This document shows positions 20,278-58,300 of a DNA stretch of 64,000 nucleotides, piece by piece. Positions within the stretch are counted from its first letter, which is position 1. Every line of letters begins with the position of its first letter. The notes below the pieces were generated by a model. The model saw only the letters and a program-made list of their open reading frames with translations, ran no database searches and was not told the DNA's origin. The stretch is from the NCBI GenBank assembly GCA_964016885.1, contig OZ024754.1:29822001-29886000 (forward strand). The letters run 5' to 3'. Position numbers and translations under genes: made by a program. This DNA comes from Eledone cirrhosa (taxonomy: Eukaryota).

Positions 20278-20340
20278 ATTTTGTCTGATGAAAGCACACC
20301 ATAATTTAACTTGGTGTCCTTGAAATATTTATAATGAAAT
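20278..20340 (+). ncRNA. Type I hammerhead
   Basis: attttgt-CTGATGA-aagcacacca-loop-tggtgtcctt-GAAA-tattta-TA-atgaaat. Confidence 0.7.
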
Positions 20341-25779: not shown

Positions 25780-28060
25780 AGGGACAAAACAGAGAGGCAG
25801 TACAACGAATGTTTATTAATTTCACGCTCTGGAGAGTGGGGTGTTGGTGGGGGACGACGTTTCGGGCATAAGCCCTTCCTCAGGTAGGAGGTGTGTGGGA
25901 ACAGAGTTCAAAGGGTGTGTAGGGGAGTGGTGGAGAGACATATAGCGAAAGGAAACGGTGCGAATGAAAAAATAAAAAATAAAGATAAAAATAAAAATAA
26001 GGCATGATCAAAATACAAGGAATGAGATGAATTTAAAAATAAAGGCATGATCAAAATAAACTGAAATTAAAAGGGGGGTAAACAGGTGGTGGAAGGGTGT
26101 GGGGTGTGTAGGGGTGGTGGCGGGTGGAGTGGGGAGAGGGAGACGGGGTGTCCGAGCGGGGAGGGCTGAAGGTGGTGTGTGTGTGTAGGTGTGCGTGTGT
26201 GTGTGTGTGTGTGTATGTGAAAGTAAGGGTTGGGGGAAGAACGGGGTTGCATGTTCGGGAAGAGGTGTGTGTGTGTGGGGTGGGGGGTCGGAGTGTCTGT
26301 GTGTGTGTGGATAGAGGGGGGGAGAGGAATCAGGTGGCTGAGGGTGTAAATATGTGGTGGAAAGCACGTGTGTGTGGGGTTTAAGCGTGTTGTGGGTGTA
26401 GGTGGCGTGTGGAGAAAACATTTTTGGGGGGTGTGTGTGTGGGTGAGTTATATAGGTGATTACGTAAGAGGATGGTTGAAAAGTTGGTAAATTCCGAAGA
26501 TGTTTAGTGGATTGGTTGTTGGTCAATTTCTGCGTGTGGGTATTCCATGAAGCGATGGTCGGAAGAGGAGAGATGTGGGGTGCGCGCGCAACAGGAAGTG
26601 GTCAGCAGTGGGAGTGCTGTGGTCTGTTTGTGCTGGGAGGTGGTCAGAGGGCATAGCAGCAGTCGGTGGAATGGTAAAGAGGCGAGGATGGGTAGGTGTG
26701 AAAGTGGGAGTGAGGAGGGTGTGTGTGTGTATTAGTAGGGGTGTTAGTGGGATGAGTGTGGAGCGAGGGTGTGGGTGGAGCGGGGAGAGAAGGGTGTGTG
26801 TGGTTCTATGGAGGGAGTGTGGTGTACTGGTGTGTGTGTAGTTTGATGAAGAGGTGTTAGTGGGTGTTAGTATACGGGAGGTGGGGAGGGGTTGAATGCA
26901 GGTGTGAGTGGGGGTTAGTGGTGGTAGGGTGTGTAGAGTTGGTGGTGTACGAGGGTGTGTGGGTACGTGTGCGTGGGGTTGGGGGTGTTAGTGATGTTAG
27001 TTGCGTGTGGGGTGGGTGGTGTAAGTGGGTGCGTGTGTTCGTGTGCTTGGGGTTAGGGGGTGTTAGTGAGGTTAGTTGCGGGGTGGTGGGATGGGGGTGT
27101 GGGGGTGAGGGGTGTGGGGGTGAGGGTTAGTGGTGGTAGTAGGGTGTGTGTTTAGTGTGAGCGCGTGTATATATGTGCCGGTGGGTGTGTGCGTGTGATA
27201 AGGAGGGGGAGGAGGAGAAGAGGGGAGGGAAGGGATGTTAGTATGTTAGTTGGGGAAGGGTGGTCAGATGGGGGGTGGAGTGGAGGTGTTAGTATTGTTA
27301 GTTGTGGGGTGGGCGGTGAAAAGGAGGGGTGTGTTAGTGGTGTTAGTGGGGGATAAGTGTGTGTGGGGGGGTCGAAGGCTAAAGGAATAAGGGTGGGGAC
27401 TTCAGGCCGGGGGGAGTGTGGGTCTGTAAGAAGAAGATAGTTTGTTGTTCGACCGTAAGGCGATTGGCGGGTGTTCCGTGGCACTGGAGTAGGCCACAGA
27501 CTGTGAGATGGCGTGCGGAATGTCCAGGGCCACCAAAGTGGCGGGCGATGAGGGAACTGCCCCCGAGACGAATATCCCGGAGGTGCTCCGTGACTCGGTC
27601 CGCCAGGCGACGTCCCGTCTGTCCGACATAAGTCGCGCTGCACTCCGTAGACTAGGTTGGAGGAGGTGCAGCGGAAGGCATGCCGGACCGAGAGAGAGTG
27701 GCCGTTGGGACCCTGGAAGGTGGTGGTGTTGGTGATGTGGGGACAGGTGTTGCAGCGGGGCCTAGAGCAGGGAAAGGAACCGTGGGGGAACAGAGCGTGG
27801 GTTGGGGGGTAGGGAGCTGTGGACGAGGAGGGTGCGGAGATTGCGTGCGCGTTTGAAGGAGGGGGTGGTGGGGTTGGGAAGATGTGGGAGGTGGAGGGGT
27901 CGGACTGGAGGCGTCGGAAGAGGCGGCGGATGGTGCGGTGGAGGGGTAAGGTGGAGGGGTGGTAGGTGATGGGGAAGGGGAGACGGTGGGTGGGTGTGCG
28001 GTGGCGTGGGGTGAGGGTGGTGGAGCGGGGGACAGCACGGGCGCTGGTGAGAGCGGTGTG
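25780..28060 (-). mobile_element. Penelope-like element (Neptune-like Cys linker plus GIY-YIG), strongly G-rich on +
   Basis: Reverse strand 27790-27400 with frameshifts: GSFPCSRPRCNTCPHI...FRCTSSNLVY...YVGQTGRRLADRVTEHLRDI...IARHF...EQQTIFFLQTHTPPGL. Confidence 0.85.
25854..25885 (-). ncRNA. Minimal PLE-type hammerhead
   Basis: ac-CTGAGGA-a-gggc-ttat-gccc-GAAA-cg-TC-gt; stem I only 2 bp. Confidence 0.6.
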
Positions 28061-32513: not shown

Positions 32514-32580
32514 TTTTATTATGCGCATTTCAAAAACAAACATCATCATGCAATAATATTTGTGTTTTCATCAGACAAAA
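32514..32580 (-). ncRNA. Type I hammerhead (inverted arm)
   Basis: Reverse complement of 32651-32717. Confidence 0.75.
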
Positions 32581-50275: not shown

Positions 50276-51109
50276 GATCAATAATATGTCCGTTGTGAGA
50301 TATGTTTAACAGTCGGATTCTATGAATATATAATTCTCAGCATCTGTCAATACCCAATAACAACAACAACAACAACAACAATAACAATAATATAAATAAT
50401 AATATCAATAATAATAATAACAATTAAATAATAATGATCCTCATAATAATACCTGATGAAGCTGGCGATGTCAATGATAAATTATAAATGATGTTTTCAA
50501 AAGTCTAGCGGCGTCGTTTGAAGCAACTATTGCAATCTATTGGCAATGAATCCGTCTAGCCATGCAGGATATATTATAACTCCAACGTATGATTGATCGT
50601 AACAGCCCTTAACCGATATTTCTGTTGTAACACGTTTATATTAACTTATACATATCATATATTGATCATCAACTCTATAGAAATTCTTCTTAATCAAGTC
50701 GAAATCAATATGGTGACTCATTATGTTGCAACTCGTTATCAAAGTGTTCCAGAAGCAATGAATCTTTTCAGTGAAAGTCCATATAATAATTACGCCGGGG
50801 AATATATTAGAGTTTATAGGTATGGTTAATAAGATTTATATCTGTTTCATTTCCTCCTCAGTAATTTGCAGATATGTTCATGAGCTGTAACATGTGACGA
50901 ACTTTTAGATTCCTCAAAAGTAAAACAAAATTAAATATAAATACAACGAAAGGAAAAACTTTCTCACAAAGGTTTCAATATTGATTACCTATAGATATCT
51001 TTTTAAATTATATTCAATTCTTACGCTAATATCTCGAACATTAATTTGAACTTACTTTAATATAACTCTTACACGTAGACGTGTTAAACGAAAAACTGAA
51101 ATATAGACG

Positions 51110-53045
51110 TCACTCCACGGTGGCTGTGAAGGGGCCGCACATGCAACCAGGCAGTTCTTCAACAGCTGCCCATCAGAACCGGCATCCATGGACTCCAGGC
51201 ACCTCATTATGAAGCTTAACATGAGGAATGCTTTAAACTGCTTACGCCGGGACCATCTGCTCGAAGCCTGCCTCAGCCGAACCCCCTCTGCGTACCCGCT
51301 GGCCTACCTGTCGTATGGAGCCCCGAGTATGCTCCTTGCTGCTGATACCGTCATACCTTCGGCCACTGGGGTCCAACAGGGCGACCCTTTGGGACCCCTC
51401 CTGTTTGCCCTTGGTATAGACCACATCGCCCGGAGTATCACGGCCCCTCTCAATGTTTGGTATTTGGATGATGCTACGTTGGGCGGGTCCGTACAGACTG
51501 TCTGCCATGACATACAATCGGTGGTTCCACTCCTGGCAGGAATCGGCCTCCGTCTCGGGCGTGCGGTCCATTCTCCACCAGATACAGTGGATGTCCTCAT
51601 CCTCGGGTCACCGATCCACTCGCCGGCCATCCGCTCCACCATCAAGTCCAGGCTTCAACAACTCCAGACTCTCACGAGCCGACTGGGCTTGATCGACGGC
51701 CACCCAGCCCTCTTTCTGTTGAGGAACTTCTTCGCCATGCCGAAGCTGCTCTATACCCTTCGCTGTGCTCCGTGCTACACTCACACATATCTCCTCGCTA
51801 ACCTCGATACTTGTATCCGAGAAGCAGCCGAGGAGATATGTAACGTCAAGTTTGACGTCATTGGATGGCAACAGGCAACTTTACCTGTCAGGTATGGCGG
51901 CCTTGGCCTCCGGTCCTCGATCTCACTGGCTTTACCGCCGTATCTTTCGTCGGTAACCTCGTGCCGCGTCCTCTTCAGCAGGGTTCTCCAAAACACAATA
52001 GAACCCTCTGTGTTCAGAGAACGTGAGGCCGCCTGTGAGACGTGGGACCGGCTGGGACTTAGCCCAGTAGACATCTCTCCTCCTTCTACTCCTGTAGACG
52101 TCAAGTCCCCCCCAAAGCACTTTGGATGCCATCCAGTGCAGCCTGGCCTCAGACAGGCTCACGCGCCAGCTCGACCAGCACCGCTTTGCCTGCTTTCGTG
52201 CGGCCTCCAACCCCCACAGTGGTGCCTGGCTCCATGCCCTGCTCTCCTTCTCTACGCAGTTAGACAATAATAGCCTGCGCATTGGCGTTTCTTGACGCTC
52301 GGCCTCCGGATCTTCGAGCCACACCAATGTCGCTGCGGATCCACCGTAGTTTCTTTCGGCCTCCACCCGCTTTCCTGTCGCCACAGTGCCGGCCGCCATC
52401 CACGCCATGCTGCTCTCAACGAGGTTATAAAGTATGGCTTGGACGCTGCAGGCTTCCCTTCCCAGCTCGAGTCGGTAGGGCTGGACCGAGGGGACGGTAA
52501 AAGGCCAGATGGTATGACCATCTTCCCGTTCCGCGGTGGTAAACCTCTCGTCTGAGGTGCCACCTGCACCGACACTTTCTGGAGCCGCAACCTGGTGCAG
52601 TCTGCGATTAACCGGGGTTCTGCTGCACGTCGGGCTGAGGAAGCTAAACTCCTCAAATACCGGTCGCTCTCCGACAGGTTTGCGGTTCTACCCCTGGCAG
52701 TGGAGAATTCTGGTGTCCTTGGCCCTAGAACAACCTCCCTACTCACCACCATAGGCGCTGAGCTGGCCAGCCGCAGGTGTGAGCCCCGGAGTTGGAGTGA
52801 CTTTTCCAGTGCGTCTCCCTTGCTGTAATCCGGGGAAACACCTTCTCCCTTCTGACCGCCGGGGCTGTGGCGGGGCCCCATCGTGTATCATTCCATATTT
52901 AGTTGTGGTCGGTGTGTGTGTGTTTGTATATATTGCTTTTGTTTTCATTCAGCATCATATCATTCTTCATGGCTTTTCTCTACTAATGAATTATATTTGG
53001 AAAAATAAAATAAACACGGCTTTAGCTGTTAAAAAAAAAAAAAAA
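51110..53045 (+). mobile_element. 5'-truncated CRE-like non-LTR retrotransposon (RT plus restriction-like endonuclease)
   Basis: GVQQGDPLGPLLFAL, WYLDD, QATLPVRYGGLGLR, CRCG..GLHPLSC..RHAALN, KRPDG; GC-rich; AATAAA then poly(A) at 53031-53045; frameshifts and stops. Confidence 0.9.
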
Positions 53046-54160
53046 TGATTATTACCATTAAGAATATGGTACTGTCTTTATAGAATATTGAGAAACTCAA
53101 CGTAAGAATAGCTGCCAAAACAGTAAAATTCCGTTAATGACATCGTTGGGTAAAACCTTACCTCAAAGGACAGGAATAAATGGCTAGAAGTGTGATGGTC
53201 CTGAGAATTGGTAGGTTTTGGCAGCTATCCTTGCGTTGATTTTGTCATTATTCTATAAATTCTAATACACTCGCTCCTGAACTCGAAATTTCCTTTTCGG
53301 CATCATACGTTGATTCCTAAATATTGTCTATAGAATATCAAATGGTAAAAGAATGTGAAAGTATTCAGTATATAGTATATGCCTTGCTCCAGTTTGATAA
53401 ATTTTATTAAAGTTCATATTTTAGGTTTGCTTATGTATAGTTTGCAACAGTAGCGTTCATGAATTCATATGTCTATTAATGCTTCGAGATCTTCACAACC
53501 CTATTTTCAGAAAAAAAATTGCTATAACTTTGTTGTATTTCTCATATGCTTAATCAGTAAATATGAATAAAGATAACAAAAGCCACACACACACAAATAT
53601 ATATATTATTATTATCTCCCAACTAGCGGACTAATGAGAGTAAGTTTAACAATTTTCCACTTTTTTTTGTGTGTTTTTGTTTTGAGATGCGCTCTAATTC
53701 CTGCTATTAATTTCATCTTTCACTCTTTTAAGTTGTGAAATAGACTGGTTTTACGCACGCGGCTGCCGCATCCCAGCTCGCTACTATATCGCTCTATAAT
53801 AGATACTGGCATTTAATGTCTGTTAAAGGTTCTTGACACTACCATTGTTATTATCGCTTTCCTCTAGCCATGGGACTTGGAGACATGAGCTGAATGCTAC
53901 CATTCTATTATACATCGATGTGGACTGCTATTTCTAATAACCATCTTTTCACTTCTTATTAATTTGTATTTGAGACACGTTGGCTGAGGGCTTTTGATGG
54001 GAACGAAAAGGATTTGTTTTCTATTCTCCCGCCACCACGTAAGTTTGTAAATCGGTGGCTGGTCGAGGGAGAGAATTGTATCGGATTCCAGTTGCTAATC
54101 ACTTTCTGTGTCGGCTGGGGTTTGGATTCTGTCGATCGATTGGTTATTGATTAGGCGATA

Positions 54161-54275
54161 CCCGCTGATGAAGCTACATACACCGATTATGCATTGTTGC
54201 ATAATATATGCAGACATAGGGTGCAGTGCACCCTACTGCTGCATTAAGTGTGGCCGAAACTAACTCGAGTCCGGG
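54161..54275 (+). ncRNA. Type I hammerhead with 84-nt branched domain II
   Basis: cccg-CTGATGA-a-gctacat...gtgtggc-c-GAAA-ct-aactcg-ag-TC-cggg. Confidence 0.75.
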
Positions 54276-54419
54276 AACTATTATAGGCACCCGTTTTACG
54301 TATGTTGTATCGAAGCGAATAACTATGTGTATACTCTGGGAATGTATCTTACATTGCCCATGGTGTACGCTGAGATACAACCGGTCCTGGCATTGATAAA
54401 TATGCTGGGTCCGTCAACT

Positions 54420-54498
<79 letters not shown>

Positions 54499-57673: not shown

Positions 57674-58300
57674 GTATGGGTTTACCGAACATTTATTATA
57701 ATGTTCTGTTTGTATGTAAACAAACAGCCCGAATTAAGCCGTACAGTGTTCGGTAACCATCGTTGCCCTTTTGTTCAACACTGAAATTAGGCTACTGAAA
57801 ACGGATGTGTATATGAGCTGACTGGTTTCTGCGTATGGACGTCGACTAGGGAGACAATTCAAGTTAGACTGGTGAAAGGGAGACGATTTACGTTTGAGTT
57901 TATCCTGGGTAAAATTTACCCTGAGTCCTTGTAGTTACGTAAGATATATTTCGCACCGTGGGAGCAGTGATTAAAAAATTACTGTTATTTAATCTCTGCA
58001 AGATAGCTATTCGTTCATCGATACACGGCTTACAAGACAAATTTTCATTTTCGTATGGCCTAGATTTGGTTAGAACTTTCCATTGAAAGGAGTAACCGAC
58101 CTCTGCATCTTTGAGTGACCATATGTGGCTTGCAAGCTTCGTGGACGATCGCTTATCCGAATGTCTAAAAGTCGTCTGATGGTTAAGGAGGCGTTCTTTA
58201 AACCGGCCCTCCGCCATACCTACATATGTTTTGACCTCCTATTGTTGGTTTGATCGAATAGAAGTAACTTCAGCCTATTGCGGGCATGTTTCTGGTATTC
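57560..58300 (-). mobile_element. PLE GIY-YIG fragment and 3' end
   Basis: TYVGMAEGRFKERLLNH...TKLASHIWSLKD; 3' end 57570-57770 homologous to 20800-21020. Confidence 0.85.

Follow-up and report, generated by a model that had tools for sequence, protein, structure and literature searches.

A type I hammerhead motif with a predicted forked domain II in a non-coding repeat of Eledone cirrhosa

Is the hammerhead-like sequence at 54161–54275 of the window (the whole 64-kb stretch of Eledone cirrhosa DNA analysed here) a genuine feature, and what could the two hairpins in its domain II be for? A preliminary description, made from the sequence alone, had proposed that such a structured insert could be a regulatory module, or one that binds a reverse transcriptase (RT) or another protein, fused to the ribozyme. 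The segment is a real feature: a hammerhead sequence of type I whose domain II is predicted to branch.

The motif and its predicted fold

A check of the window's sequence located every element that the preliminary description had named (Table 1). The full hammerhead core, the CCCG/CGGG stem I and the GUC site are all there, as is stem II (gctacat/gtgtggc), and the motif has the hallmarks of type I hammerheads, i.e., a CUGANGA ... GAAA ... NUH core, helices I, II and III, and an open helix I. The two hairpins (IIa and IIb) are likewise in place, albeit that one pair of the 8-bp upper stem of IIb goes back to a G-to-T change at 54217, private to this copy. Helix III had been left out, though it is the weak part of the motif: in the family, it consists of 2 bp and a palindromic tetraloop. 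Domain II measures 84 nt, and the strands of helix II enclose 68 nt predicted to fold into two hairpins; cleavage is predicted after 54271.

Table 1. Coordinates of the hammerhead motif, of its repeat unit (both in the window) and of other families with a long domain II
Feature	Coordinates or loci	Strand	Remarks
Stem I, 5′ strand (CCCG)	54161–54164	+	91% of cells paired in alignment
Core CUGAUGA and extra unpaired A	54165–54171; A at 54172	+	0/7 core differences between subfamilies
Domain II	54173–54254	+	7-bp basal helix (54173–54179 with 54248–54254) closing the predicted three-way junction
Branch IIa	54186–54205	+	8-bp hairpin, 4-nt loop
Branch IIb	54208–54244	+	Long hairpin; base conserved, apex differs between subfamilies
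Extra C (54255), GAAA (54256–54259), helix III, GUC (ending 54271)	54255–54271	+	
Stem I, 3′ strand (CGGG)	54272–54275	+	Sequence check
Conserved block 5′ of stem I	54130–54160	+	Predicted 7-bp hairpin 54134–54152; GGCG 54154–54157
One full non-coding unit	53604–54425	+	92% identical to subfamily A majority; ~30 nt missing near 54113
Tail from predicted cut to fixed 3′ end	54272–54425	+	154 nt; putative reverse-transcription start
(TA)37 microsatellite at 3′ junction	54423–54496	.	Usual family insertion context
Family D	L160–L179		93-nt domain II; predicted rod, z −4.1
Family E	L268:3645–6875; L067, L180–L199		90-nt domain II; predicted rod, z −2.8
Family F1	L085–L129 (shared with F2)		82-nt domain II; predicted rod, z −2.8
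Family F2	L085–L129 (shared with F1)		82-nt domain II; predicted rod, z −1.2
Family G			70-nt domain II; predicted rod, z −6.1; 4 copies aligned

The motif belongs to a repeat family, 117 copies of which were clustered into subfamilies A (n = 56), B (n = 16), C1 (n = 23) and C2 (n = 9) and two groups of n = 3, smaller groups being dropped. The cleavage triplet is GUC in subfamilies A and B and GUA in C. Folding of a 141-nt stretch of the window gave −45.4 kcal/mol (z −3.19; none of 200 shuffles was equally good), and in the window sequence IIa and IIb pair with probabilities of 0.97 and 0.95, the basal helix II with 0.84, stem I with 0.54 and helix III with 0.04. The same three-way junction is predicted for the majority sequences of all four subfamilies (basal helix II 0.96–0.98, IIa 0.96–0.97, IIb 0.93–0.98), the pair probability of helix III being 0.0 in each of them, and the hairpin of the conserved upstream block also appears in the folds of B, C1 and C2. 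An extended stem I was considered and rejected: comparing A with C, 12–13 of the 30 positions in its 3′ strand have changed, the 5′ strand being unchanged.

An Rfam search did not report the motif at the gathering score, nor at E values of up to 10, the long insert being the probable cause. Scanning the genome for a strict core around a long domain II yielded 431 matches versus three in a reversed control, and 96 of the 100 listed matches to this pattern belong to the family of the window motif.

Both hammerheads of Penelope-like elements (PLEs) and non-coding PLE derivatives are already on record (accessible sections of PMC4209133, PMC7229834 and bioRxiv 10.64898/2026.07.22.740005). As the accessible text of Cervera and De la Pena 2014 (PMC4209133) has it, minimal PLE hammerheads combine a CUGANGA core and an extra nucleotide after position 9 with a helix II of 7–8 bp, a helix I of 4–5 bp and a palindromic helix III, and they sit near the 3′ end of PLE-type repeats that are mostly solo truncated copies; all of this is shared by the present family. 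The extra nucleotide here is the A at 54172, between 9 and 10.1, with G10.1–C11.1 at the helix base; the palindromic helix III/loop 3 of that text occurs in the family but is spoiled in the window copy. The extra C before GAAA results in an A–C opposition, and the search descriptor in the same sections permits an extra N11. The descriptor, however, sets 10 nt as the upper limit for loop 2, and loop 2 reaches at most ~9 nt in the part of the alignment examined, whereas it comprises 68 nt with two predicted hairpins here.

Another natural hammerhead in which a peripheral helix holds a large insertion is, in the accessible account of PMC6155905, the discontinuous hammerhead of mammalian Clec2 genes, which differs in being of type III, in having an insertion of 150–1500 nt in helix I of a single-copy host gene, and in its unrelated origin. 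In some Naiads, the halves of the hammerhead core are described as 35–50 nt apart (accessible part of PMC8557442). The literature covered (including accessible parts of PMC3088659, PMC6765202, PMC6155905 and PMC13725137), mostly open access with subscription papers largely outside it, held no PLE hammerhead whose domain II is long or branched, nor a PLE hammerhead from cephalopods. What is new here is the predicted long, branched domain II on a PLE-type hammerhead, beyond the published descriptor.

The repeat unit and the type of its ribozyme

The unit in the window is one of a family with a unit length of ~848 nt, residing in an AT-rich and microsatellite-rich genome of 3.0 Gb. A search for the family returned 3,279 first-look candidates; 40 were scored, and the other 39 are 92–94% identical over the region. 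A 26-nt family motif has 927 exact matches in the genome versus none in the control, from which, at a copy identity of 93–96%, we estimate some 3,000–4,500 copies. The 3′ ends are fixed ~154 nt past the predicted cut, mostly running into (TA)n, while the 5′ ends vary by 5′ truncation. Full-length units occur in 22 of 30 loci picked by their 5′ end (window included), and the 3′ fragment of a preceding unit abuts the unit start in 16 of the 29 other loci, picked in the same way. Three loci (L239, L339 and L340) hold head-to-tail pairs of a partial and a full unit with two intact second core boxes, the two motifs being spaced by ~830–840 nt, and inverted truncated copies occur at L022 and L239; no long tandem arrays were seen in the loci examined. 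Partial head-to-tail tandems, 5′ truncation and adjacent inverted copies are described as the typical arrangement of PLEs (accessible part of PMC8557442).

The unit contains no ORF longer than 107 aa and has no similarity to PLE proteins; the ORF with RT and GIY-YIG domains that defines an autonomous PLE is absent from it. We are confident that the repeat is a non-coding, non-autonomous element with PLE anatomy, and that its ribozyme is of the PLE hammerhead class. The family may already be catalogued in repeat databases without its ribozyme. It is present in the organisms labelled A and B in four public runs (DNA or unlabelled). A metagenome scan with the core and the family loop 3 gave five matches in prokaryote-like sequence, without similarity to the element, which we read as chance. 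A stall of the RT at domain II was entertained as the source of the 5′ ends and rejected, since the ends are scattered: of 30 copies picked by their tail, eight end past the cut, eight between domain II and the cut, and 14 farther upstream.

Among known elements, the non-LTR retrozymes (in the accessible parts of PMC7229834 and bioRxiv 10.64898/2026.07.22.740005) are likewise non-coding and non-autonomous; each of their units carries a type I hammerhead, and they have head-to-tail repeats, a proposed PLE origin and many solo monomers. Compared with these accounts, the unit here is longer (~850 nt versus ~300), occurs mostly solo or in partial tandems, carries a long domain II predicted to branch and is described from DNA, accumulation as circular RNA being a mark of retrozymes. 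The Poseidon element PAc of the green anole (PMC11167929, accessible part) shares AT-rich targets, an end downstream of the hammerhead and a tandem organisation, but it is autonomous, its hammerhead overlaps the start of the ORF, and no long domain II is mentioned in that part. Reverse transcription of PAc is placed there ~85–92 nt past the cut, as compared to a probable 154 nt here.

Helix III of the family, GAAAC-UCGA-GUC, is an 8-nt palindrome that yields a 2-bp stem as a hairpin, with predicted energies of +2.9 kcal/mol for the monomer hairpin versus −10.7 kcal/mol for the 8-bp dimer duplex. Judged by these predictions, the family ribozyme is of the dimer-dependent type of PLE hammerhead, and the three tandem loci could supply the dimer in cis. 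In vitro, monomers of minimal PLE hammerheads did not cleave and dimers cleaved at a low level, according to the accessible text of PMC4209133; a study of PLE hammerhead dimers, Lunse et al. 2017, is cited in PMC6765202 (accessible part).

The window copy departs from the family by a private 4-nt duplication in helix III (~54262–54265), absent from 62 other aligned copies, and by further private changes at 54175, 54182 and 54217; the public runs list its private changes as differences. The duplication spoils the dimer register, leaving −1.0 kcal/mol for the predicted dimer helix in catalytic register versus the −10.7 of the family, and turns helix III into 3 bp with a 6-nt loop. Solo, without a tandem partner, 8% diverged and out of dimer register, this copy is probably inactive or weak, and by itself it matters little. 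Domestication of this copy as a regulatory ribozyme, able to cleave as a monomer by virtue of the lengthened helix III, is extremely improbable: the duplication makes that hairpin slightly less unstable (+1.1 versus +2.9 kcal/mol), but its pair probability is only 0.04, and the divergence of the copy is that of an ordinary old insertion.

We found no coding partner of the family among 160 of its loci. Hits to PLE proteins occur in five of the 160, some of these loci being redundant; in none of the four read by eye is the unit continuous with the PLE protein, the two being separate insertions beyond microsatellites or other repeats, and in the fifth, L141, the protein is on the opposite strand. 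A strict hammerhead scan of 30 GIY-YIG loci, with thresholds that miss short helices, returned no match; the thresholds overlooked a short-domain hammerhead motif behind a GIY-YIG ORF at L239.

Elsewhere in the window, there are short-domain hammerhead-like motifs at 20285, 32657, 63181, 15802 and 34511 on the plus strand and at 32574, 39740 and 63054 on the minus strand, with two inverted pairs among them. Broken frames of a non-LTR retroelement, perhaps CRE-like to judge by its motifs, occupy 51107–52887 (plus strand), with an RVT_1 match (E 4e-4) below the Pfam cut-off. A fragment of a PLE GIY-YIG endonuclease lies at 57900–58238 on the minus strand, with 48,226 first-look candidates in the genome, and 26001–28000 is GC-rich with a strong G skew (GC 0.57, skew 0.69) within an otherwise AT-rich window.

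Other hammerhead families with a long domain II

Loosening the core pattern brought up hammerheads over a wide range of domain II lengths: 131,611 matches versus 15,268 in the control for domains of 8–38 nt, 306 versus 38 for an intermediate length, and 2,144 versus 15 for other long domains. The net ~116,000 short-domain matches, mostly with a palindromic loop 3 and often in inverted pairs, amount to a very high load of PLE-type hammerheads. Among 100 listed matches with other long domains, 92 belong to one family, E. In all, domain II ranges from ~11 to 93 nt among the families of this genome.

Families D, E, F1, F2 and G (Table 1) all have a palindromic loop 3 and a domain II predicted as a single rod with internal loops, and they share no evident sequence. 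D, E, F1 and F2 likewise end at (TA)n, ~50–100 nt past the cut. A long domain II recurs, then, among the PLE hammerheads of this genome, branching being seen only in the family of the window motif.

The families also have traits of their own. In family D, CCGAAGA replaces CUGAAGA in 10 of 15 readable cores, and the hammerhead often sits inside a perfect inverted repeat of ~50 nt. F1 and F2 have related domains II with an A–A opposition at the helix base, and their repeats are older (80–90% identical). Copies of family E are young (96–100% identical); its stem I is nearly absent (one pair), and the 7 nt that directly follow the cut find their complement within domain II, on its 3′ strand, which might allow an alternative fold. 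Three more hammerhead-like motifs with domains II of 63–86 nt, at L082–L084, may constitute another family.

Similarity to PLE proteins is found upstream of family E, on the same strand, in 11 of 20 loci. At L268, a partial upstream repeat is followed by an ORF (with one frameshift) and then by the hammerhead, ~600 nt past the ORF. The ORF has the motif YRDD, a cysteine-rich linker and a GIY-YIG-type motif, and the nearest Atlas clusters of its protein are RT/GIY-YIG; Pfam gave no relevant match for the family E protein. PLE proteins were assigned by visible motifs and Atlas throughout, Pfam having failed to recognise them. The linker agrees with what the accessible part of PMC8557442 describes for Neptune-type PLEs.

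Conservation and possible role of domain II

Loss of the branches among homologs had been named in the preliminary description as an outcome that would speak against its idea; both hairpins are kept in the predicted folds of all four subfamilies. The alignment of homologs that it had called for, made from 36 of the 117 copies picked to cover the subfamilies, shows the branches retained but no significant covariation in them: six pairs changed on both sides, where shuffles gave 5.7 (276 of the 500 shuffles reached as many), and the covariation score of 0.137, reached by three of 500 shuffles, is inflated by the relatedness of the copies. The four lineage-level changes in the basal helices all preserve pairing, viz., one compensatory change in helix II (A–U to G–C, subfamily B), A–U to G–U in IIa (B and C, no double change), and A–U to G–U (B) and G–C to G–U (C) in IIb. 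A search for distant relatives with the same loop 3 and an altered helix II gave five matches, four of them mutated family members, and thus no deep homologs for covariation. We regard the branches as retained in a manner compatible with selection, not proven by covariation.

Conservation at the sequence level is uneven. The apex of IIb differs at 8 of 18 positions between A and C1, versus 1 of 19 in its base, and refolds in a shifted register in the subfamilies, with a U–U mismatch there in B. Domain II without this apex, with region borders chosen after inspection of the data, shows 3 differences in 65 positions between A and C1 versus 120 of 499 in the flanks (Fisher p 1e-4), and 3 of 65 versus 86 of 401 between A and C2 (p 6e-4), C1 and C2 not being independent. 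There is no excess conservation between A and B (5 of 65 versus 30 of 703, p 0.21), nor is IIa alone or the base of IIb alone significant against C (p 0.06–0.14). The 35 nt 5′ of the core have one difference between A and C versus 21–24% in the flanks. An exact loss of IIb was found in two copies versus 927 intact junctions, and a genome search for a spreading lineage without IIb found none. The two copies, L305 and L306, show the same clean loss between short repeats.

Conservation of the sequence itself, reaching 35 nt upstream of the core, is what selection of the block as DNA would also produce, be it as an internal promoter of the pseudo-LTR or as a recognition site for the endonuclease, the hairpins then being a by-product of short palindromes; promoters do reside in pLTRs (accessible part of PMC6765202). 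We consider this decidedly improbable, given that the lineage changes in the basal helices all keep pairing, one of them compensatory, and that the fold of domain II is far superior to that of shuffled sequence in A (z −6.4), B (z −3.9) and C (z −2.7), four of the five other long families likewise outdoing their shuffles.

An improbable proposal, too, if less so, is that the junction would provide a tertiary contact in place of the loop 1–loop 2 interaction and so speed up cleavage, by pairing of GGCG (54154–54157) with CGCC (the family form at 54181–54184). Four G–C pairs can form in A, C1 and C2 at a similar distance from the core, and in other hammerheads, stems I and II are often linked by pseudoknots (accessible part of PMC3088659). 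Only 84% of the cells are paired, however, a double change occurs in one of 36 sequences, one pair each is broken in subfamily B and in the window copy, and no counterpart was established in other families.

Unlikely, yet less readily set aside, is a purely passive domain II: the same element and ribozyme class, in which the branches are a tolerated, self-folding insert that need only fold out of the way and leave helix II stable, and is read by no protein. The range of domain II lengths among the families, the long ones being mostly rods, would suit such an insert, as would the refolding of the IIb apex in each subfamily and the lack of a conservation signal versus B. But the base of domain II and the junction strands are kept in sequence between A and C against strongly diverged flanks, a mere need to fold would permit compensatory swaps, of which only one is seen, and no spreading lineage without IIb was found.

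We lean, with moderate confidence, towards a PLE-type dimer hammerhead in an element that relies for its copying on the RT-endonuclease of a coding PLE, acting in trans, with domain II, less certainly, serving as a handle for folding and docking. Inferring from published work on PLEs, a transcript through a head-to-tail pair would bring two hammerheads together, their 8-nt palindromes would pair with each other to make a single long helix III, and a cut after GUC or GUA would release a unit-length RNA, probably with the help of the protein. The protein of the coding PLE would nick AT-rich DNA and begin reverse transcription at an internal point of the RNA, ~154 nt past the cut, a start that would account for the fixed 3′ end and the partial tandems, the latter by read-through into a neighbouring or circular unit. 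Domain II would be the handle by which the RNA folds and the RT-endonuclease docks. We favour this handle on two grounds: over the 35 nt 5′ of the core and at the base of domain II, the sequence itself is kept and not pairing alone, and the protein of the anole PLE requires an RNA segment overlapping its hammerhead (accessible part of PMC11167929). In its favour is also that the long domain II of family E sits ~600 nt behind an ORF with RT and GIY-YIG. The RT- or protein-binding role first suggested for the branches is plausible by analogy, in a retroelement where the RT-endonuclease must act in trans. That the five other long families have rods and most motifs a short domain implies that PLE proteins generally do not need a branch.

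More tentatively, the junction together with the upstream block may be what the protein recognises, or what lets the protein help the ribozyme to fold. The ribozyme of the anole PLE depends on the protein for cutting, and reverse transcription begins internally, downstream; insertion in vitro nevertheless proceeded without cleavage, and none of the reads terminated at the cut (PMC11167929, accessible part), which counts against an essential role of cleavage.

PLE hammerheads by themselves are described as cleaving poorly (accessible part of PMC4209133), and in the sole PLE that has been reconstituted, the hammerhead needs the protein (accessible part of PMC11167929). The large, conserved and deletable domain II described here, alongside family E with its own protein and a 90-nt domain II, makes the recognition target of such a protein directly testable. 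At least 2,500 exact-pattern long-domain matches in one genome mark a blind spot of descriptor searches. It is a rather doubtful idea that these families represent an overlooked class of PLE hammerheads in this animal lineage, in which a domain II grown to 70–93 nt, as a rod in five families and a three-way junction in the present one, would be read by the RT-endonuclease, coupling RNP assembly, dimeric cleavage and the start of reverse transcription. If true, this would be a natural protein-gated ribozyme, whose module lets a non-coding passenger capture the protein of a coding element, and the class, invisible to published descriptors, may be widespread.
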